From positions 1,410,816-1,474,815 of the forward strand of contig MU004191.1 in assembly GCA_010093605.1 (NCBI GenBank): a stretch of 64,000 nucleotides of DNA, written 5' to 3'. Source of the DNA: Lophium mytilinum. Taxonomy: Eukaryota. The notes under the pieces were generated by a model. That model was not told where the DNA came from, ran no database searches, and was given only the letters and a program-made list of their open reading frames with translations. Position 1 is the first letter of the stretch, and each line of letters begins with the position of its first letter. The position numbers and the translations under genes are program-made. This document shows positions 32,907 through 46,507 of the stretch, in pieces.

Positions 32907-35194
32907 CTAGTAAGCCACCATAGCCGAGAATCCCTCCATCTCCCTATCGAAGTTCTTATGCTGGGAGATAGCAAAGAAATACGAGTCCACAAAGTCCTTC
33001 GCGCCCTTCGCCATCTTCACTGCCTCCTTGAAGCTTTCTGGATGCACCTGGCTTGCCGTCACTACACCATACGAGTCCACCACCTCTCCGGATGTCGAGA
33101 ACGAGACACCTGGAAGCTGGCATGCGTCGCGGACGAAGGCTACTGCCTCGCCAGTCGCGCCGATGGCCTTCAGGTGTCCGAATGCCTCGCGCACCCAGTG
33201 CAGGGCGCGGCCATTCTTGCGGAGAGTCGCAATAGCGTCAGCACCGCCGGGCACAAAGATGGAGTCGAACATGGTTGAGCGCATGCCCTCGAGGTGGTGG
33301 TCTGGCACTACGCCCTTGCCGCTGGACTTGCTCTCGCCAGCAGCGAAGATGGTGTTGCGCTTTGGGCCGATGGTGAAGGGGACAGCACCTGACGCGGTCA
33401 GGGCAGCCTTGACTCCGTTGTAGGCGATAGCATCATAGCCCTCTGCGATGATGATGGCAACGCGGCGAGTGGCGATGGTTGGCTCTGCTGGCATATACTC
33501 GAGCTGGCTCAGACCCTTCGCCTTCTTGCCGTGGTTGGGACGCTTGGCCTCGGAGGGCACATCGGCGCCGACCATTTCGGCGACTTGCTGCGCAAGGTCG
33601 AGGTCGATGTCGTTAAGGCGGTCGGCCATGCGCTTGTAGACGACTGGGTCCTCGCAGTGGTCGAGTTCGAAGCCTAAAGCGGCTACAATATGGGCTTTCT
33701 CAGGGGGCGACAGTGAGTTGTAGAATAGTTGGGCTTGGTTGAAATGCTCCCTAAACTTCTTGCTCTTCAGGCGCGTCTTGATACCAGCAACCTTCTCAGG
33801 ATAGTCAACGTACCCACCCTCTTGCGCAGTGGCCGGGGGGTGAGCCTCGAACCGATTGGGCCAGTAGTTGGCCTTGCCCTTGGTGATGGTGTGCCTCATT
33901 GCACCATCTCGGTTGTTATTCATGACGGGGCAGACAGGTTTGTTGACCGGCAGCTCTTCGAAGTTGACACCGAGACGAGAGAGTTGAGTGTCTTGGTAAG
34001 AGAAGTTGCGTCCCTGGAGGAGGGGATCATCGGATAGACCAATACCGGGGACGATGTGGCTTGTGCAGAAAGCCAACTGCTCGACTTGCGTGAAGTACTC
34101 ATCTGGCATGCGGTTCAATTCGAGTTGTCCGATGTATCGGATTGGAATGAGCTCCTCTGGCCAAAGCTTGGTGGCATCTAGGATGTCAAACTCGAAGTCT
34201 TGCTCTTGAGCTTCTGGGATGACCTGGATACCGAACTTCCACTTGGGGAATGCTCCGGCACTGATGGCTTCTTCCAGATCTTTACGATGAAAGTCCGGGT
34301 CTTGTCCGGCAAGCTTCAGTGCCTCGTCCCACACGAAGGAATGGACGCCTAACTCAGGTGTAAAGTGGAACTTGACGAAATTCCGCTCTCCCTTGGCATT
34401 GATGAGAGTGTAAGTGTTGACACCAAACCCCTGCATCATCCGGTAGGATCTTGGAATGGCTCGGTCGGATTGAGTCCACAGAAACATATGTGTAGCCTCA
34501 GGGTGTAGATATTGGAAGTCCCAGAAGTTGTTGTGAGCAGTCTGAGCCTGGGGAACTTCATTGTCGGGCTCAGGCTTGCCGGCATGAATCACATCGGGGA
34601 ATTTCATGGAGTCTTGGATGAAGAATACTGGGATGTTGTTGCCAACGATGTCCCAGTTTCCTTCTTCAGTGTAGAACTTGACGGCGAATCCTCGCACATC
34701 ACGAACGGTATCTGCGCTGCCCCGGCTTCCAAGAACGGTAGAGAATCGCAGAGCAACGGGAGTCTCGCGCTTCGTGTCTGTAAGAACTCCTGCGGACGTC
34801 ACGTCTTCGGCGCTCTCGAACAGAGTGAACTTTCCGAAGGCAGCAGCGCCTCGAGCGTGGACGACTCGTTCGGGTATACGTTCATGATCGAATCGGTGAA
34901 TCTGCTACGTATCAGAAAGGCCGCCCGTACAATCGAGTGTGGAGTGTATCTGGAACTGACCTTTTCTCTGGCGAAGCCGTCTTCCAGCAAGGATGGGCCA
35001 TTCTTGTCCTCGGTCGAAACGGTCAACCAATCATCAGTGTTGGTTTGCTTGGTACCCCAATCGGAAGTGATGCGAGCTTTGGTGTCATAGGAGTCCTTCG
35101 TGTTGGCCGCCATTTGGGCGAACTTCGCGTCGTGCTCTCCAGGCATGACTTTCTGCACTGTCTCTGTTGCTGTGGAGAGGATTTGGGATGCCAT
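32907..35194 (-). CDS. catA: Large-subunit monofunctional catalase (CatA type) with C-terminal DJ-1/GATase-like domain
   Basis: GPSLLED...REK|IHRFDHERIPERVVHARG, RFSTVLGSRGSADTVRDVRGFAVKFYT, haem motif RNFSYQDTQ, C-terminal EAFGHLKAIG; no signal peptide; one intron at about 34903-34960. Confidence 0.97.
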
Positions 35195-37479: not shown

Positions 37480-38160
37480 GCCGCCCGCGCGGCGCGCCGT
37501 TATCTAGCTCAGGCGACCCCAAGTACGCAGATACGACGAGGAGAGTCGCGCTGACAGGTACGTCCAGCGTGGCTGACTGGTGGTTGGAGAGGCTGATGTA
37601 CCTTTTTTTGCTGCGCGTTGAGGGGGGGGAGGTGGGGTCAGGCGGATTCGTTGCTCGGCAAGCCCTGACAAGCTTTCGCCCGCCGGGATGCCTGCTTCGA
37701 GTGATGGTGCAGCGACTGGCGTCGCGAGAGGAGGCTGCGTGGGCCAGTCAGGTTCACAGGGCCGTCGTGGTGGGCGGATCTGCTTTGCCTACAGGACCAA
37801 GGACGGGCGCGATGTGCGGGAATGTATGCACAGTATATGCACGCAGATACGTCGTGTATCAACTAGTAGAACTTTTCTGCATTTGCGAGACCCGCTATCA
37901 TGTCATCCACCAGAATTTCCCGAGGGGCGCGTATGTAGATGGGAAAGGGAGAAGAAGAAACAACATGCAGCTTGTAGTGAAGGGTTAAAGAAAAGAAATC
38001 AAGCCAACATGATAAGTAGAAACATGAATGTGATGTATGAAGGTGGTAGGTACTCCAGCTGCGCGTCTTTCGTGCGGCATATATGCTCATCCAGACTAAA
38101 CTCCAACCCCGCTATATCCAAATGCTATTGGCTTTAGGCAGCCCTCATGCGTTGTTCCGT

Positions 38161-38598
38161 CTACTCCAGTAGAGTGAAGTCCGGAACACCCGGCTCGCCG
38201 CCCCAGTGGACGGGGCCCAGCTTGAGGAATCGTGGGCGCCCAAACGACTCGGAGCTGCTGACGCTGCTGGAACGCCTCTTCTTGAGCATATATTCGATCT
38301 CTTCGGCGGTGGTGTCCGCGGAGCCAACGGTTGGGGATGCCATCTCAGCCGGGATAAAGTCGTCAACTCGGTCGACTATCGGGGAAGCCGAAATCTTCGA
38401 GGCAGTGGAGGAAACACGTGGGCGAGAGGGGTAAGAAGCAGAGGTGACCGGTGCCAGGGTGAGGAAGGTGAAGTTCCGAACGGGAATGTGGTGCGAGCAC
38501 TCGGTCGTTGAGACCTGGACGGGGGAAGCGGGCTCGATGATTTGCTCCATGGTCTTTTCGGCAAAGTTAACGGACTTCTTCGGCGATTCAGAGGCCAT
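38161..38598 (-). CDS. Small Ser/Pro-rich protein, 145 aa
   Basis: GCC-ATG-G start context, TATAAA at 38714-38709, CT-rich leader, C/G-ending codons, and a structured-looking tail RFLKLGPVHWG. Confidence 0.75.
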   Translation of the reverse strand: MASESPKKSVNFAEKTMEQIIEPASPVQVSTTECSHHIPVRNFTFLTLAPVTSASYPSRPRVSSTASKISASPIVDRVDDFIPAEMASPTVGSADTTAEEIEYMLKKRRSSSVSSSESFGRPRFLKLGPVHWGGEPGVPDFTLLE

Positions 38599-41500
38599 GG
38601 CTCGTGGTGAAAGTGGTGGAAGGTTGGGAGAGAGGACGGCGGAGGGATCAGAAGGTGGGAAGAGCTGCAGTGTGTGGGATGAGACTCACTGGCTGGATAT
38701 TACAGGACTTTATAGAGGGAAAGATTTAAAAGTGGGTTGATGATTCGAAATGCTGTACTCCACACGTGGATTGCCGCCGGACTGTACCAAGGTCTGACCC
38801 TGATTGCTTTTGGGGATACACCTGACCACAGTAGGCGCTTGGATGAGAAGCTATCGTGCAATCGTGCAAGCGCGTGACCAAGCAACAGCGAGTCGTTCGA
38901 AGTGGGATGAATTAAAGGAGAGAAAACGGAAGGAAGGCTTGAGCTGTGTCTATCTTGGACGATCGTGTACTTATAGAATTCCGGCGCAGGCCTACTGATA
39001 TCGGAAGGCTTAGGCGGGGGCCTTACCCATGACGTGAAGCCGCTATGCCAGCTAGTGGTGCAGGAATCCCTTCGTCCATCAGGTAGGAGACGAGGAAAAT
39101 CCGGAAGGAGACCTGGTCCTCTCACGTCCTATTGTAGATGCTTGGCTATCATTCTTGGTGTGCTGATCGCCATTCGACGAGGCTCGAGACTACCCCACAA
39201 AGATGCAGATAGCGGTCAATCAGTCTTGTCGAATGAGCGTTATTTATTGCCAAGGGACTTTGCGGTATCCGCCGCGAGCGCAGAAATGCAAAACACCACC
39301 CGCAATCAGTGCAGCCATTCTTTTCGAATGTGTGACGCGTCCTGATGTCTCATGAGATAGGAGCAGCCGCCTGTTTCCTTAGAGTTGCGGTGGTGCTAGC
39401 AAGCGCCCTTGCCTCTGGTTCCCCGCATTTCGGGCGCAAAAGGAAGCAGCTGGTGGAAAGACACCACGTTGGCTGGAATCAGGAGCATCGTGAGGTCGGG
39501 AGCCGATCGTAGCCGGCGGGCGGGACCGATCGGAAAAGCGTGACCGAGGGGCAGTTGTCGAGGCTTCAGGGAGCTGAACTGAGCGTCTGTATTGGTGTGC
39601 AGCAGGCAGTTGTGCAGCAGCTGATTCCCGCATCCCGAGTTGCCGGCGGAGGTGACGAAACACGTGACCTTCTGACCGATCGAGCTGCGGACTGATCAAG
39701 CACTCAGTCTCTGGTGTTACCCTGTTTGCCACTGTTTGAAGTGCTTAAACGAGTTTCCGCATAGCCCAGGGCGAAGAGCTTGTATCTCGTCAGGGTTCTG
39801 CAACTGCATAGAAGCGCCCCAAGCAGTGCCATACCCCTACTCGTGGACTGCAGCTTGCAGTAGATTTAGAGTACCACCTTTTCTATGCCGCGGCACATTC
39901 CTGAGCGAGCCCGCTAATAGCACGCGTGGCTGTTTCGATCGGTTGGAGGCGTTGCACCGAAAGTTTATTCATGTGTGCCGGAGGTTTTGCATCACCATCA
40001 CGTGCTCGTTAACGCCCATTTTCGGTCGAACCTTGGAAACGCCGGCACTGGCACGTAGCGGCGCGGAATTTTGACTTTTGACATGGCGATCCGGGCTGCT
40101 CCACGCGAGCTGATCGATGATTACTGTGGGGTTGGGGTGTGCGATGGAAGGGGGTGGCTCCTGGCAGAGAGCAATCCGACTCGACAGCGGCGGAAGTGGT
40201 GGCGAGAAAGGTTAGGTAGGCGCTGCGACGCTGCGAGCCTGCGATAGGCTATGATGCAGCGTCCTGAAGGATGAGCGAGAGCTGGTCCACCGTCGAGGCG
40301 AGCCGCTCCTTTAACTGTCAGCTTGCCATGTCCTGGATGGACCCGTATCGTGGCGGGTGAGGTGCCGAATGGCCTCTCCGAGAAGAGCCCGGACGAGACA
40401 AATTGGCTGCGACAACGGCAATAGATTGATGGTGCCCTTTGCGGATCGAGCCCTCTGCACATCACCTGGAGTCGCGATGATTTGCCTTGGCACATACTCG
40501 ACGCAAGCACCACGCTGGCCATTCACAGCCCGGCGTGCGGCTTAATGTGACAGGACTGCGCTACAAGGCGCCTCGTACCATGTTCCATGGCCATTGTCAA
40601 CCCCGGTGCTGGCCTCGCCGCGCGACTCTTCTGGCAGCTCCTCAACCTTCATTCGAGGACCCCCGTTGCGGCAAAGGCAGGGAGCTTTCCGGCGTGACAT
40701 TGCGTGCTCCTCCGGATCTGCTGACTCGTGCTGCTCCAGCGGATCGCCTTCAGGCCTCGTCACAGGCACAGATGCGATATTGATGTCGACGGCCGTTTTG
40801 GTCGCTTGTACGGTAAGGGACCTCTGGTTCCACGCGCTCTCCACCACGCCATCACCACCCAGCCAACCTCGTCAAGCCAGTCTCGCTGTGGCCACAGCCA
40901 GTGCCGCCGGGGTGCCATGTGGATGCTGGGCTGGCAAGGGATCCCTTCGCGGCGCCAGGCCGCGGACTGTCTGCAAACCTTCTCGTCGTATGCTCCGCCC
41001 TGCACAGCACTGCAATCACTTCACGGCTGGACGCCGCCCTGAAGCCAACGCAGCACGGCAACGCCTCCACGGCCCCGGCTCGCGGCAGAGGACGCTTGCA
41101 TGCCGAAGGCCACCACGTCCCGATGTGGACAGGTGAGAGTGGGTGGGTTTGTGACAATCACTCTGGCTCAAGTAGCTCACGGGGAAGCGGTAAAGCGACC
41201 ACGCTTGGCGTACATGAATCTGATTATGCACGAGTAGCGCAGGCACGATAGAATACGCGCCACTGGACGACGTCCATGGTTGAGAATGGTGGCAACTCTT
41301 GCGGGGCCGGGGTCTTTCAAGTGCATTTTCAGGGAGTTCAATTGTCTACACTGTCTTCGCACTGTCCGAAACATTTCTACATGCTTTCTCAAACCCCAGG
41401 GTGACAGGAGTGCCTCTTGGGTATGCTCCGCGTAACGAAACAGACGTTGCTGGATTAAAACAGTTAGTCAGCGCCCACCACCGCCGACGGCGTTATTCCG

Positions 41501-42075
41501 CAGCGTTGTGAATAGTCCTGGGCATGCTAAGGGCAGTCCGTCTACAACCCCCTCCCCTTAGTTCCATGTGCTCCACGACGAGCCCACAGGGCTGATGCGT
41601 CCGCTCGACGTTGGACAAGATCTGCCCGGAGCCCATTGCGGAATAGCCAGCCATTGCGGTATGGAGCAGGCCGCCCGGCTAATGGCAGGAAGGGCATTGC
41701 TGCCCGCCGCGGCGCAGGCCTTGGAGATGGCACCCGTGGACTGCGCGGTTTTGCTGCCCAGTTCCAGGTGCTCGTAGCTACAATGCACCGCAGAGGCGTC
41801 AGGTCGAGGCATGATGGCCGCCGGGGTGCCTCCACCCTACTCGCTGCACGGATTGGCCTGCGCGCGGGCTCTAATCACTCTCAACCGTCGATAGGCACCC
41901 TGGCCCCGTGTTCCTTGTCGTGAGAGGCCGCCGCCAGACGCCCACCTACATGTCCTTGCTGCTCCCGCACGGAGCCAACGGCTTTGCAGCTCTGTCGCAC
42001 TCTGTTGCAAACGGGAGCGGCAGTAATCTAACAGCTTGCTGAAGGCCCGTCATCTCGGGTGCTCGACGATGCCTG

Positions 42076-42081
42076 TATAAA
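42076..42081 (+). promoter_or_regulatory. TATA box of the microprotein gene
   Basis: TATAAA followed by a pyrimidine-rich, ATG-free leader of about 450 nt. Confidence 0.6.
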
Positions 42082-42529
42082 GCGGCCCACTGCGCCTTGC
42101 CATTGTCCATTGTCGACTCCAGCTCCACCTCCCACGCTCCCCACACACAGCTCCCAGCTGCCTCAGCTCCCCCCCTCTCCTCCTCCTCATACTCGTCGCC
42201 TCAGGGCTCCCCACTGTTGAGTCGTCGCCTCGTCCTCGTCCGTCCAGCTGCATCCGCCACAGCTCAAGCTCCAGCTCCAGACCCAGACCATTCCAGGCCA
42301 ATCCCCACCAGCCCCACGAAGCTTGCCCGTCCAGGACTCGCACGCAGCCCGCCAATCGTCGTCGTCGTCGTCCGCGCGACCCTTTTCTCGTCTCTCCAGG
42401 CCACGGGTCTGCAGCTCTCCAGCACCCAGCTCGCGCTGCCGCCGTACCTTGGTACGCTCCGCCCAACACCACGTCTCGACGCGCGCCGGCTCGACCCCCG
42501 CAGACCCTCGCAATCGGCAAGCCGCAACC

Positions 42530-42676
42530 ATGTGCCAGAAATTCGTGCACACGTACAGCTGCGGCCACCAGATGGTGCAGAAGGCGGAATGCGCCACGTC
42601 GAGGTCGACGAACTGCGGCGTGCTGCAGGTGAAGAACATCAAGCATGACGAGAAGTGCGATAGCTGCGATCACTGA
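42530..42676 (+). CDS. 48-aa Cys/His-rich microprotein, putative metal-binding
   Basis: MCQKFVHTYSCGHQMVQKAECATSRSTNCGVLQVKNIKHDEKCDSCDH; start context CAACC-ATG; only 5 of the 47 codons after the ATG end in A/T; flanking UTR introns. Confidence 0.8.
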   Translation: MCQKFVHTYSCGHQMVQKAECATSRSTNCGVLQVKNIKHDEKCDSCDH

Positions 42677-45208
42677 CAGGTAGGCCCCTCGCCCCTCGCG
42701 GCTGGCCCCGGCGGGTGCATGTCTGACCAAGCTCGCAGCAGTGTGCCACCGCAGACTCTATCCGGACGACACCTCATGACGGCCGGTGGCACGCAAACAG
42801 GTGTCTTCTATCGCAGCGCAGGCGGGACCTCAGCTCACCTCATCACACAATTTCCTAGGCGGGGGCCTGCTGGTCTTACGGGCCCTCTCTCCTCTCCAGT
42901 TGGCAGGGGCATTTCACGGCGTCACGGAGACAAAAAGTGCGAAGGCGTTGGAAGGGCATCGGCGGCCCACGTGGACCACGGGCTATGGCTATCTAATGGC
43001 GAGACTGGCGAGACTGGCGTTTGACGGGCAAAATGGGTTGGCCGGGGGCTCTGCTTCACCTCTTGTATTACTCGTCGCTTTTGTATGCGCAGTGCGATTG
43101 GGCGCGGGCGAGGGCGTGATGGACTTGGATACCTATGGACTGTGACCTGTCCCACGGCGGGACGGGCAAAAAGGCGTTGCGTTCGTCGCGTTTCCACATG
43201 CTGTCTTCTGGCCCACCATCCTCTGCTTGCCTGCGTTCCTGCGTTTCATCGCCTTCCAATGCTGCTCTCCCGCGCGACGTGCGGCGGTTGTCCCGCGCTG
43301 CCGAGGCGGGGAGGCGGGAAGGCCAGAGGTCAAACAGAGGGCGCCGGCGAGTCAATTGCGCGACAGCTGTCAACTCGCTGGACGGGTCATGCCTGTGAGG
43401 TTCGCCCGCGTCGTACGAGGCCGTTGAGAAAAAGCAAATGACGCGTCTAAATCGCCCAACCGCGGCAGATGCTGCAGCTCGCCAATCGCCCCGATTTCAA
43501 ATACCCGCCCGGACAGCTGTGCCTCTCAACGGCTGCCCGACTGCCGCAGCTCAGCCTGCCGAGGGGGGTGGGGGCAGAAGGGGGGGACCACGGGACTTGG
43601 CGGGCCTGATATCAGATAGGGTATGGGCACGGCAGGCCGAAAAGTCAGCGGACCAGGAGCACCGCGAGCTGGAACTGGAGCAGCGGGAGGGCAGCGGGAG
43701 CATCCAGATGGACAGACGGGGGCCACGCTGGAATGCTGCCCAAGCCCCAATGGCGGCGACGGGCTGGACAGGGCGACGATAAGTGGAGTGGGTGGTGGTG
43801 GGTGGTGGTGGGTGGTGGGCGCTGAATCCGTCCTCAGTTTCTGGCCTCATGCACTGAGACGGCACAGCAGCTGCAACGGCGACATGTTTCGTTCTCCCGT
43901 CGACCATCCTGCGCATGTCTCCAGGCCGAGGAACGGGCCGCACGCCACACATAACCTACAGCACACCCGCCGCGCCCAGATTGGGTGCCCTGCCTCTGAT
44001 ATAGCTGCGCCGTTGTGATAAAACGGCGCTGCATCCACCGCAATCTACAGCCGACGCGATCTCCAACGCGCATATTACCAGCAGCACTAGGCGGCCGGCT
44101 ATGGGGTGTGCGTCTTGGGTTGCTGGAGCTCTTCCAGAACACTTCGTCTCCAGAATAATAGCCCGCACCCCAGACTGCACCGGCATCATCGTCGATCACT
44201 CCACGCCGCTGCAGCACCACTCCAACAGCAGCCCCGGTCAACCTCCACGCCTCAGGTCGTCCTGCCCGTCGCGGCCGCTCATCCGGCCGCTACGGCGCAT
44301 CCCTGAGCTGCGGGCAGCAGTGTCCGACACACGAGCGCAGCTTGCCTGTCTGGCACACCATCAGTCTGTCCGAAGCCTCGTGCATCGGGCATCAGCCGCG
44401 AAGACTTAGCCGCGCAGCTGCGGCCATGATCGCTGGATCGATGCTTGCCGCCGCCCCTGGTCTCCGTGGCGGCGCTGGCTTGTGACGGCGGGGCTCCGCC
44501 TGCAGAGGCTCGAGGCGTCTGCGAGGAGCTTCCACAAGGCGATGGGTTCGCATGACTTCATGCTCGCTGGATGCACGACGCGGGGGCACGTCGAATGAGG
44601 TGATGACAAGCACTGGAGACGAGCGTCCCAGGGCTCGACGCCACGGCTGGCCCTCGACAACGGCGCACCGGGAAGGATTGTTGCGCGTGTGATGCCATAG
44701 CAAAAGCTGCATTATCACTGCGCCCGGAAGGTGGGGGGTTAGTCGTATTGAGCAGGTCCAGCTTTACTTTTCCTAGCTTCGAAACGTCGACCGCGCGCGC
44801 CGGGGCTGCTCGCGCACGTCGCTTGCTCGGAGACGGGGCCCACAGCATTCTGTCGACCCTGGCGGACATGGTGATGCGCCAGTGGTGGTGACTTGGGGAT
44901 ATGGTGTCGGCGACTGGGGCCCTGTTCCGAGTCTTGGCATAGATGAGAAAGTGGCACGCTCAGATTGTTGAGCACGCTGTCTGCCGCTGTTAGAGTGCTT
45001 CAATCACTTCTAAAACAGCCCAATGCAAAGAATTCCTCTCACTATCACATGTCTAAGGAATGCAATGTAAGCAGACCCTCATTACACGCGTTCACACCCG
45101 ACCGCGGCCTGTTCAAAGTGCAGTGCCACTTATTTTATGCCCTGCGTACCTCGGACGGGCGAGACTGCCTGCCTGCACCTCACATAGAACAACACTCCGA
45201 CTTCACCG

Positions 45209-46507
45209 ATGAGTATCGACATCCACTGGGACACCCTGACGGGCGGTCCTGATGGAGTTGCCCGAGCCGAGACCATTCGAGCTTTCATCCATGAAAGGTT
45301 TCAGCAGGTGACGCTGCCGCGCTTCATCCGCTCCGTCAAAGTCCACTCCTTCGACTTTGGCAGCGTGCCCCCTGAGCTTGAGCTCAAGGACATCTGCGAC
45401 CCGCTCCCGGACTTCTACGAGGAGGATGATGACTATGGGAGCGAGGATGAGGATGCCGCCGACCGCGTTTCAGCCCAGGTCGACAGTATGCATCTCGATA
45501 CCCCCAAGTCCTCCAACGAGCGCCGCTTCAGGGGACTGGACGGACAAGACCTTGATGGCCAAAAGCCGCCCATGCGGTCACATCTTCCGCCGCACGTAGA
45601 CACCAGAGGGCCCGGCTTGCGTTCGATGCTGGCGCCAGGCGATCACCTCGGAAGCCCTCTGATATCCAGAGCATCCACTCCCGGCATCCCAGGCGGCACA
45701 TCCAACATGAGCTACTTCCATCTCCCTCTTGGAGCTGGTATCTCAGGTGCTACTACTCCGCTCGCTGCTGTGGCTGGTGCCCAATATCAGAGCTGGCCGG
45801 ACAGCCATCATTACGGTCGTTTCCTACACGAGCACGGCAACCGCCGGCCCGATGCTACTTCCATCAGTTCTCTCACTCCTCCTCTCTCAACCGCTGATCC
45901 AAGCTCGCGTCCATCGTCACAGCATCACAATGAGCCGATGAGACATGGTCCAAAAGTTGACACTGAAGAGTCCTCATCATCTCACATGCACCCCAAGACC
46001 CCCTCTCCGTCGCCACCACCGCGAATGAGGGAGAAGAGCGTCAACGACATGCAGGTTGTGTCACATGTCAAGTATTCTGGAGACATCAAAATCTCTCTCA
46101 CAGCCGAGATTCTGCTAGATTACCCGATGCCCAGCTTCGTCGGCATACCTTTGAAACTTAATATCACAGGCTTGACTTTTGATGGCGTGGCCATCTTGGC
46201 ATACATCAAGAAGCGGGCGCACTTTTGCTTCCTGTCGCCAGAAGATGCAGATTCACTTGTGGGCGGCGAGTCTTCTCTGGACAGCATGCCCAACGATCCA
46301 CAATCCTCCGATCGCGCAAGCACCCGGCTCCCCAAAATTGGTGGTTTACTTGAGCAAATCAAGGTCGAGAGCGAGATTGGCCAGAAGGAGAATGGCAAAC
46401 AGGTTCTCAAAAATGTCGGGAAGGTGGAAAGGTTTATTCTCGAGCAAGTCAGGCGCATCTTCGAAGACGAGTTCGTCTATCCAAGCTTTTGGACATTTCT
46501 TGTGTAA
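45209..46507 (+). CDS. MDM12: ERMES subunit Mdm12 (SMP domain)
   Basis: [10 protein letters not shown]...[57 protein letters not shown]...[12 protein letters not shown]. Confidence 0.97.

Follow-up and report, generated by a model that had tools for sequence, protein, structure and literature searches.

The 64,000-nucleotide stretch of Lophium mytilinum DNA considered here, referred to as the window, contains an open reading frame (ORF) of 48 codons on the + strand (42530-42676, stop codon included), which is almost certainly a real, translated gene. The encoded peptide, MCQKFVHTYSCGHQMVQKAECATSRSTNCGVLQVKNIKHDEKCDSCDH, harbors six Cys residues (positions 2, 11, 21, 29, 43 and 46) and four His residues (7, 13, 39 and 48). 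The best explanation overall, to which we assign a moderate probability, is that the gene has its own promoter and encodes a free-standing mini-domain that would hold two zinc ions and act by binding a partner. What is new, as judged from sequence, is a Cys/His module of metal-binding type with an unmatched ligand spacing, together with an unusual, conserved gene architecture. Conserved eukaryotic microproteins that display a fold-like ligand pattern and belong to no family are rare entry points to new biology, and in this case strong purifying selection spans a fungal class that is rich in plant-associated species.

Comparative evidence for the reading frame

By its length alone, the ORF does not exceed chance. 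In the ORF list of the window, 59 ATG-initiated ORFs of at least 40 aa overlap the interval 37500-46000, and because ORFs of this size are common in GC-rich DNA, the case for a gene rests on comparison with relatives; it is the conservation of frame, start, stop and architecture in these relatives that places the ORF above chance. When six-frame pieces of 38.6-45.2 kb were compared with all of the related loci described below, the frame of the micro-ORF was the only one that matched 31 of 31, and the remaining matches came from this DNA or from conserved noncoding blocks, read in antisense or in an alternative frame. No second protein-conserved frame was found in 38.6-45.2 kb among the related loci. 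Between 38.16 and 45.25 kb, none of the 40 stop-to-stop ORFs with a length of 100 aa or more matched a Pfam family, and Rfam and tRNA scans over 36-47 kb yielded nothing relevant.

An exhaustive phmmer search of 1.84 billion representative proteins with the window peptide identified 44 relatives at E<=1e-3, 10 of them at E<=1e-10; a 614-aa repeat protein that was matched in seven stretches (P0032) was excluded from the 44. In the other relatives, the match constitutes either the whole protein or the extreme end or start of a longer predicted ORF. A word-indexed search returned one identical 48-aa entry and one 48-aa protein that is 83% identical, and also found the peptide as the C-terminus of a 287-aa model from Mytilinidion resinicola and of a 186-aa model. 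The named family members span 14 species, i.e., Lophium mytilinum, Mytilinidion resinicola, Glonium stellatum, Patellaria atrata, Neohortaea acidophila, Paraphaeosphaeria minitans, P. sporulosa, Periconia digitata, Ascochyta lentis, Phyllosticta paracitricarpa, P. citriasiana, Saccharata proteae, Neofusicoccum parvum and the more divergent Lepraria finkii, where all members are labeled "hypothetical" or "uncharacterized". A taxonomy look-up placed Lophium and Neohortaea in the Dothideomycetes and Lepraria in the Lecanoromycetes; the remaining named species we take to be Dothideomycetes.

Related loci were obtained from metagenome contigs with a back-translated pattern, which yielded 31 loci (numbered with the prefix L). 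The pattern was taken from the narrower of two alignments and fetched only members with the stretch VKH[DE][ES]KC[DE]; divergent subtypes ending in ...ICGG or ...CGG lie outside this set. One of the loci, L013, is a truncated duplicate of L001, which leaves 30 complete loci. In all 30, an ATG is found at the aligned M1, without an in-frame Met upstream before the preceding stop, and the stop codon is located two residues past the last Cys. The ORF comprises 48 aa in 20 loci, 50 aa in one and 53 aa in nine. In several of the loci, an in-frame stop is found only 11-30 codons before the ATG.

Purifying selection is evident from pairwise comparisons of 15 distinct 144-nt coding sequences (CDS), including that of the window. 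The proportion of nonsynonymous differences (pN) is smaller than that of synonymous differences (pS) in 105 of 105 pairs, with mean values of 0.175 and 0.583, respectively, and the ratio dN/dS relative to the window is 0.12-0.41 in 13 pairs, one further pair being saturated. Of the 48 columns per codon position, 22 vary at the first position, 22 at the second and 43 at the third. In an alignment of 31 sequences, an author-chosen subset of full-length members of 48-54 aa, residues M1, C2, C11, H13, C21, C29, H39, C43 and C46 are invariant, while H7, G12, A22, S24 and K42 are conserved in at least 90%. The window ORF displays this family pattern, i.e., an M-C start with C2, followed by C11-G-H13, C21, C29, H39 and C43-x2-C46.

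A preliminary description, made from the letters of the window, had pointed to a TATAAA sequence at 42076, a leader free of ATG, a CAACC-ATG start at 42530 and a 48-aa ORF with six Cys, four His and a strong C/G bias at the third codon position, and had proposed an intracellular zinc-knuckle or metal-binding peptide. All of these elements are present in the sequence, where the start context at 42530 is CAACC-ATG and the stop is TGA at 42674-42676, and the ORF list agrees with the reading frame and its Cys/His pattern. The GC content at codon positions 1, 2 and 3 is 0.46, 0.38 and 0.90, as compared to 0.60, 0.45 and 0.62 in MDM12 and 0.61, 0.40 and 0.66 in a catalase ORF of the same window. A real gene for a small intracellular Cys/His protein, with its own promoter, is upheld by the comparative data, including the homology and dN/dS comparison that the same description had called for, in which both the frame and the Cys/His pattern are kept under purifying selection.

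Promoter, leader and post-stop intron

The architecture of the gene is unusually elaborate for a CDS of 147 nt, with a TATA box, a 340-560-nt AUG-free leader, an intron just past the stop codon and motifs in the 3' untranslated region (3'UTR). Four features shared with the related loci, i.e., the TATA box, the ATG-free leader, the post-stop intron and MDM12 downstream, are all seen in the window, where the elements are located as follows:

41947-42081, + strand: promoter block ending in the TATA box (TATAAA 42076-42081), defined by blastn blocks shared with relatives
42072-42529, + strand: leader, presumed 5' untranslated region (5'UTR), ATG-free and C-rich; transcription presumably starts shortly after the TATA box
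42452-42503, + strand: candidate 5'UTR intron, GTACGC...CAG, with a weak branch site
42530-42676, + strand: microprotein CDS, 48 aa, stop included; conserved start, stop, length and ligand pattern
42680-42741, + strand: 3'UTR intron with a GTAGGC donor 3 nt past the stop and the branch sequence TCTGAC at 42722-42727
42742-42805, + strand: first 3'UTR motif, at the start of exon 2; sequence conserved across 20 loci
42909-42936, + strand: second 3'UTR motif (GCATTTCACGGCGTCACGG...), which recurs in relatives
45209-46507, + strand: MDM12, the downstream neighbor; matches solved Mdm12 chains at E 3.5e-33, Pfam SMP-type PF10296

The blastn blocks that make up 41947-42081 are common to L002, L010, L011, L020, L022 and others. 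Of 19 distinct loci with sufficient upstream sequence, the window included, 15 contain a single TATA[AT]A in the 750 nt that precede the start codon. It is located between -332 and -588, follows a shared motif and comes a few bases after the last upstream ATG. In the window, the nearest upstream ATG is found at 42069-42071 (distance -461) and there is none in 42072-42529, while across the loci the nearest upstream ATG is located at -339 to -562. The last 300 nt before the start contain no ATG in any of 18 distinct loci, as compared to a total of 33.9 expected from base-matched shuffles of these leaders and to 58 CAT counted on the same strand. Both features noted in the preliminary description, i.e., the TATA box and the long leader free of ATG, are in other words conserved in 15/19 and 18/18 distinct loci, respectively. 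The 18 leaders, when pooled, contain 44% C and 20% G, and a purine is found at -3 in 25 of 25 distinct start contexts.

The candidate intron of the leader, at 42452-42503, is spliced (PPYL|DPRN) in the NCBI model for Lophium mytilinum (P0050), whereas the Mytilinidion resinicola model (P0003) reads through. No leader intron is seen in L009 and L012, which are collinear with L016 and L014 over the shared part of the leader.

The presumed 5'UTR also harbors a CCAAT-containing motif, at 42352-42356 in the window and about 110-180 nt before the ATG. Its sequence is GCCAATCG in the window and GCCAATCAGCGC in most loci, and it is also found in the leaders of L003, L006, L007, L009, L010, L015-L017, L021, L022 and L031. 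In many loci it is followed by CGCCTTC and GAAGGCG, i.e., short complementary segments that are able to pair.

The intron just past the stop codon has tandem acceptors in the window, AG 42737-38, which was chosen in the preliminary description, and AG 42740-41, which by homology with the relatives is the conserved one. A splice-signal parser found the intron in 20 of 28 distinct downstream sequences; the donor follows the stop by 2-5 nt in 18 of them and by 13 nt in two (L014/L018), and the branch sequence is nearly always TCTGAC. The remaining eight were inspected by eye: four (L002, L023, L025 and L026) have a GT donor 3-4 nt past the stop with a non-consensus branch or acceptor, two (L010 and L011) have a donor after which the contig ends in a palindrome, and two (L009 and L012) are without the intron. 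L012 and L014/L018 are 99-100% identical, but L012 precisely lacks two GT...AG segments of the + strand that contain branch sites, one of 58 nt just past the stop and one of 123 nt further downstream. This is the pattern of a spliced transcript compared to unspliced or genomic copies, and it therefore provides direct evidence of post-stop splicing in a relative. L009 is likewise without the intron of its relative L016, to which it is 84% identical. The post-stop intron that had been read from the window is, accordingly, real in relatives and its donor position is conserved.

The 123-nt segment represents a second intron (GTAGGT...CTGAC...CAG, + strand) within the spacer between the micro-ORF and MDM12, 427 nt upstream of the MDM12 ATG. 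It is found at L014:994-1116 and in L018, and at L012:900-925 the contig continues with this intron spliced out, which implies that + strand transcription covers the spacer in that relative. Such transcription could belong to a long 5'UTR of MDM12 or read through from the micro-ORF unit. In L010 and L011, the last ~100 nt form a perfect inverted repeat that starts within the post-stop intron and is probably an assembly artifact.

Of the two 3'UTR motifs, the second is located 214-293 nt past the stop in nine distinct loci, as well as in L013, which is identical to L001. The first can form a hairpin of 9-11 bp in the window (42743-42751 with 42784-42792, minimum free energy -22.1 kcal/mol), which is no better than in shuffled sequences (z only -1.19). 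A model that combines the hairpin with a pseudoknot was rejected (66.6% of cells paired compared to 66.1% in shuffles, with 197 of 500 shuffles scoring as high), and RNAalifold found no consensus pairs in the 3'UTR element, i.e., covariation gives no support. Because these three structure checks failed, the first element is described here as a sequence motif only. The same element is seen in P0047 (90 aa), a mis-modeled relative, where the tail SVPPQTLSGRHLM... is a translation of the element at 42742-42800; this match implies that the element is more conserved than the CDS between those two species.

In terms of expression, the TATA promoter would drive an mRNA of roughly 1 kb, in which the micro-ORF would be the first AUG that scanning ribosomes meet after the long, C-rich, AUG-free leader, and from which the short intron just past the stop would be spliced out. 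This intron probably aids expression of the tiny single-exon ORF. According to the general 50-nt rule, a junction this close past the stop should escape nonsense-mediated decay (NMD), and because the junction is found 2-5 nt past the stop in most loci, such escape is expected. The terminating ribosome would clear the exon-junction complex (EJC), and the benefit of splicing could be gained without EJC-dependent decay. In Neurospora, an intron located close to the stop or within the 3'UTR can make an mRNA a target of EJC-dependent NMD, according to a passage in PMC7746235 (citing Zhang and Sachs 2015). The mRNA of the micro-ORF resembles these in having a spliced intron downstream of the stop in a filamentous ascomycete, but differs in the short distance from the stop to the junction, 2-5 nt in most loci, and in that the intron leaves the protein unchanged. 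The locus offers a clean test case for introns right past the stop codon in filamentous fungi.

The predicted module and alternative readings

The microprotein does not fall into a described family. No Pfam family matches the window peptide at E<=10, and a Pfam search with 29 members gave only three single-member matches (E 0.11-0.66). A sequence search of the PDB returned RPA12 alone with a wide profile (E 0.63) and nothing with a clean profile, and fold searches with the predicted models gave nothing significant. In the Protein Atlas, only Ascomycota clusters were found (scores 0.84-0.87). Two AlphaFold runs based on different alignments both predict a three-stranded sheet (strands 2-8, 14-19 and 32-38), with the C11-G-H13 turn between strands 1 and 2 and C43-x2-C46 in the tail.

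On this basis, the microprotein probably binds metal, most plausibly zinc. The eight invariant Cys and His residues are located at predicted strand ends and turns and are accompanied by conserved residues that are not ligands, which would fit two tetrahedral zinc sites. Zinc ribbons and knuckles, such as the RPA12 ribbon, and the Zn(Cys)4 domain of Fur/PerR are likewise small beta-rich modules; the predicted microprotein resembles them in the placement of its ligands at strand ends and turns, in its C-terminal CxxC and in a number of ligands that would suffice for two tetrahedral sites. However, zinc ribbons and knuckles are defined by two CxxC knuckles, each of which provides a pair of ligands, and the microprotein has one CxxC (C43-C46), a C11-G-H13 turn and otherwise single ligands. 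Twin CX9C (CHCH) proteins were also considered. The CHCH proteins of the mitochondrial intermembrane space carry two CX9C pairs in a helix-loop-helix, and the microprotein does not match this class, as the spacings in the microprotein are Cx8C and Cx7C and strands are predicted instead of helices.

The product would be a free-standing 48-aa protein of the cytosol or nucleus, without a signal peptide, in which the six invariant Cys and two invariant His residues would most likely hold two structural Zn(II) ions around the small sheet. Such a rigid module, similar to a miniature zinc finger, would act by binding a partner, which may be either a protein or a nucleic acid. A possible role is that of a small competitor or adaptor of DNA-binding factors that carry the same domain. 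Three long predicted proteins point in this direction. In P0018 (322 aa), the microprotein domain occupies residues 1-48 and a Zn2Cys6 domain (PF00172, E 7.5e-9) is found at 132-167. In P0030 (299 aa, six cluster members; with P0057-P0061) the domain is N-terminal, and P0030 and P0018 share a second short motif that is FIT..S..DFKSK-like (E 2e-4). In P0039 (966 aa), the domain is internal, between a Myb domain and Homeobox_KN/PHD/KilA-N domains. These fused forms weakly hint at a nuclear, transcription-linked role, the hint being weak because they are automatic gene calls.

The term "microProteins" is used for proteins that mimic one domain of larger transcription factors, as exemplified by Id proteins and plant LITTLE ZIPPER. 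The microprotein would resemble these as a free-standing copy of a domain that is also present in P0018 (Zn2Cys6) and P0039 (Myb/homeobox/PHD/KilA-N). It differs from Id and LITTLE ZIPPER in that it is known here from its sequence, and in that the long forms are three automatic gene calls. The locus is in this sense a candidate link either to transcription-factor control or, through its neighbor, to contact sites that the endoplasmic reticulum (ER) forms with mitochondria.

Several observations weigh against the two-zinc, partner-binding module. In a wider alignment of 29 sequences, C29, H39 and C43 are only nearly invariant (in rows such as P0019 and P0040), where this alignment takes in some defective models and the ligand pattern is invariant or conserved to at least 90%. 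The AlphaFold models have mean pLDDT values of 76 and 74, i.e., of middling confidence, and three automatically called fusions are thin support for a nuclear role. In addition, a two-zinc module does not explain the strict linkage to MDM12.

This linkage is seen on the same strand in the window and in 17 of the 17 loci that have at least 2,055 nt of downstream sequence, with MDM12 located 1.1-2.5 kb past the stop, and the only loci without MDM12 are 13 whose downstream sequence does not exceed 1,833 nt. It was counted only for members with the VKH[DE][ES]KC[DE] stretch and is also found in members that are 35-41% identical to the window peptide. Several of the 17 loci are near-duplicates, so that 15 distinct spacers remain in addition to that of the window. 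Upstream, no Pfam family was matched by any of the 73 ORFs that reach 130 aa or more in 14 loci, and upstream ORF similarity of any kind was seen in only 4 of 78 locus pairs; together with the ORFs of the window, which are also without Pfam matches, this indicates that wide gene-poor flanks recur in relatives. The preliminary description had placed the gene alone between large gene-free flanks and had suggested a check of synteny with MDM12. The flanks are borne out by the relatives and so is the synteny, while the word "alone" understates a fixed linkage. In Dothideomycete chromosomes, gene content is kept while order and orientation are randomized, as described in PMC3219968, which makes the fixed pair notable, though it is no proof of a functional tie.

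An explanation that starts from this pair is that the microprotein serves Mdm12 and the ER-mitochondria encounter structure (ERMES), i.e., the ER-mitochondria tether, as a dedicated partner or regulator in filamentous ascomycetes, or that the unit is coupled in cis to MDM12. In the cis variant, read-through or promoter interference would operate, and a long regulated transcription unit would control MDM12. If true, either version would explain why the pair survives the scrambling of gene order in Dothideomycetes, and it would account for same-strand MDM12 even next to the 35-41%-identical members. The L012 contig, which is continuous from the micro-ORF through MDM12 without the two + strand introns of L014/L018, is also consistent with coupling. 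However, a continuous assembled contig may merge overlapping transcripts, several of the linked loci are near-duplicates, adjacency alone is weak evidence of binding and the protein is without membrane or mitochondrial targeting features. We therefore regard coupling to MDM12 as unlikely.

Similarly low is the probability that we assign to a stress-inducible metal buffer or metallochaperone, metallothionein-like in function. Fungal metallothioneins, e.g., the Neurospora and yeast Cu-thioneins and Zym1 of fission yeast, are characterized by a high Cys content, CxC, CC and CxxC clusters and few aromatic residues. The microprotein is likewise very small, Cys/His-rich and intracellular, its TATA promoter with a large upstream region would be compatible with strong regulation, and the GC content at the third codon position, 0.90 as compared to 0.62-0.66 in neighbors, may suggest high expression. 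However, Cys accounts for only 6 of 48 residues (12.5%), without CxC or CC clusters and with a single CxxC. Many positions that are not ligands are conserved (Y9, G12, A22, S24 and K42, and also F/V5), a defined beta-sheet is predicted, and no metal-responsive promoter motif was seen upon inspection by eye only. On balance, a partner-binding module is slightly favored over a metal buffer.

Less probable still is a role of the eight Cys and His residues as ligands of an iron-sulfur cluster or as a switch that responds to redox state or oxygen. For instance, the invariant N-terminal Met-Cys could expose a reactive Cys once Met is removed.

In yet another reading, the micro-ORF would be a regulatory upstream ORF, i.e., the first cistron of a long MDM12 mRNA, where translation and not the peptide matters. 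The shared strand, the fixed order and the continuous L012 contig would be expected in this case. However, the spacers from stop to MDM12, which are 1,101-2,532 nt long, contain 12.1-20.6 ATG per kb in 16 distinct spacers as compared to none in the leaders, and no more than 10-226 nt directly before MDM12 are free of ATG. Because of this ATG density, scanning cannot reach MDM12, and the pair is not a scanning-type bicistron. Moreover, the peptide is under strong purifying selection with invariant ligands, and the 3'UTR motifs hold their distance from the stop, not from MDM12. Taken together, a regulatory upstream ORF is very improbable.

Public gene models and flanking DNA

The preliminary description considered the gene to be overlooked and below annotation cut-offs, which is not the case. 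In public databases, the gene is present as hypothetical proteins of 48-66 aa or is buried in over-extended models; entries of 48-49 aa are annotated in Paraphaeosphaeria, Periconia, Ascochyta and Glonium, and in Lophium mytilinum the locus is covered by an over-extended 344-aa model. KAF9731087.1 (Paraphaeosphaeria minitans, 48 aa), CAI6339447.1 (Periconia digitata, 49 aa) and KAF2494195.1, i.e., the Lophium mytilinum model P0050, belong to the same family; across the 48 residues their identity is 60-100%, and they agree in start, stop and Cys/His pattern. These database orthologs, which show no biological difference from the window protein, carry neither a name nor a Pfam family nor a described function, and in several of them the model continues upstream across the leader. 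The literature searched, peptide strings included, contained no paper on the microprotein and neither a name nor a family for it, and nothing relevant was found there on Mdm12 with microproteins or on small ORFs in Dothideomycetes.

The last 48 residues of KAF2494195.1 are identical to the window ORF, and the model maps with 99-100% identity to 40587-40694, about 40862-41143 and 42046-42450. It looks like a longest-ORF artifact in GC-rich DNA with few stop codons. The 287-aa Mytilinidion model P0003 picks exons that differ from those of P0050. The public gene models at the locus are wrong in at least two genomes. That the 48 codons only form the final exon of a longer protein, in the manner of these 344-aa and 287-aa NCBI models, the former of which maps to window exons from 40587 on, is the least probable of the readings considered, since the third P0050 exon (42046-42450) runs through the conserved TATA box, the two models disagree on the 42452-42503 intron, homology in all relatives begins exactly at M1, in-frame stops lie 11-30 codons upstream in several loci and the upstream extensions of different members share no similarity.

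The region 40001-45000 is the GC-richest part of the window, with a GC content of 0.61-0.64 per 1-kb bin, where nearly all other bins fall at 0.44-0.60 and one at 0.61, and it yields many long random ORFs on both strands. Upstream of it, the nearest ORF with a plausible start is found at 38161-38598 on the - strand (145 aa, MASESPKK..., no Pfam matches), and a catalase ORF of the large-subunit type, with the Pfam domains Catalase, Catalase-rel, Catalase_C and DJ-1_PfpI, is located at 32910-34904 on the - strand. Noncoding blocks at 38800-39218, 43405-43461, 44377-44468 and 44684-44765 are shared only with L020 (60-81% identity); they could serve as distal elements in the regulation of either the micro-ORF gene or MDM12.

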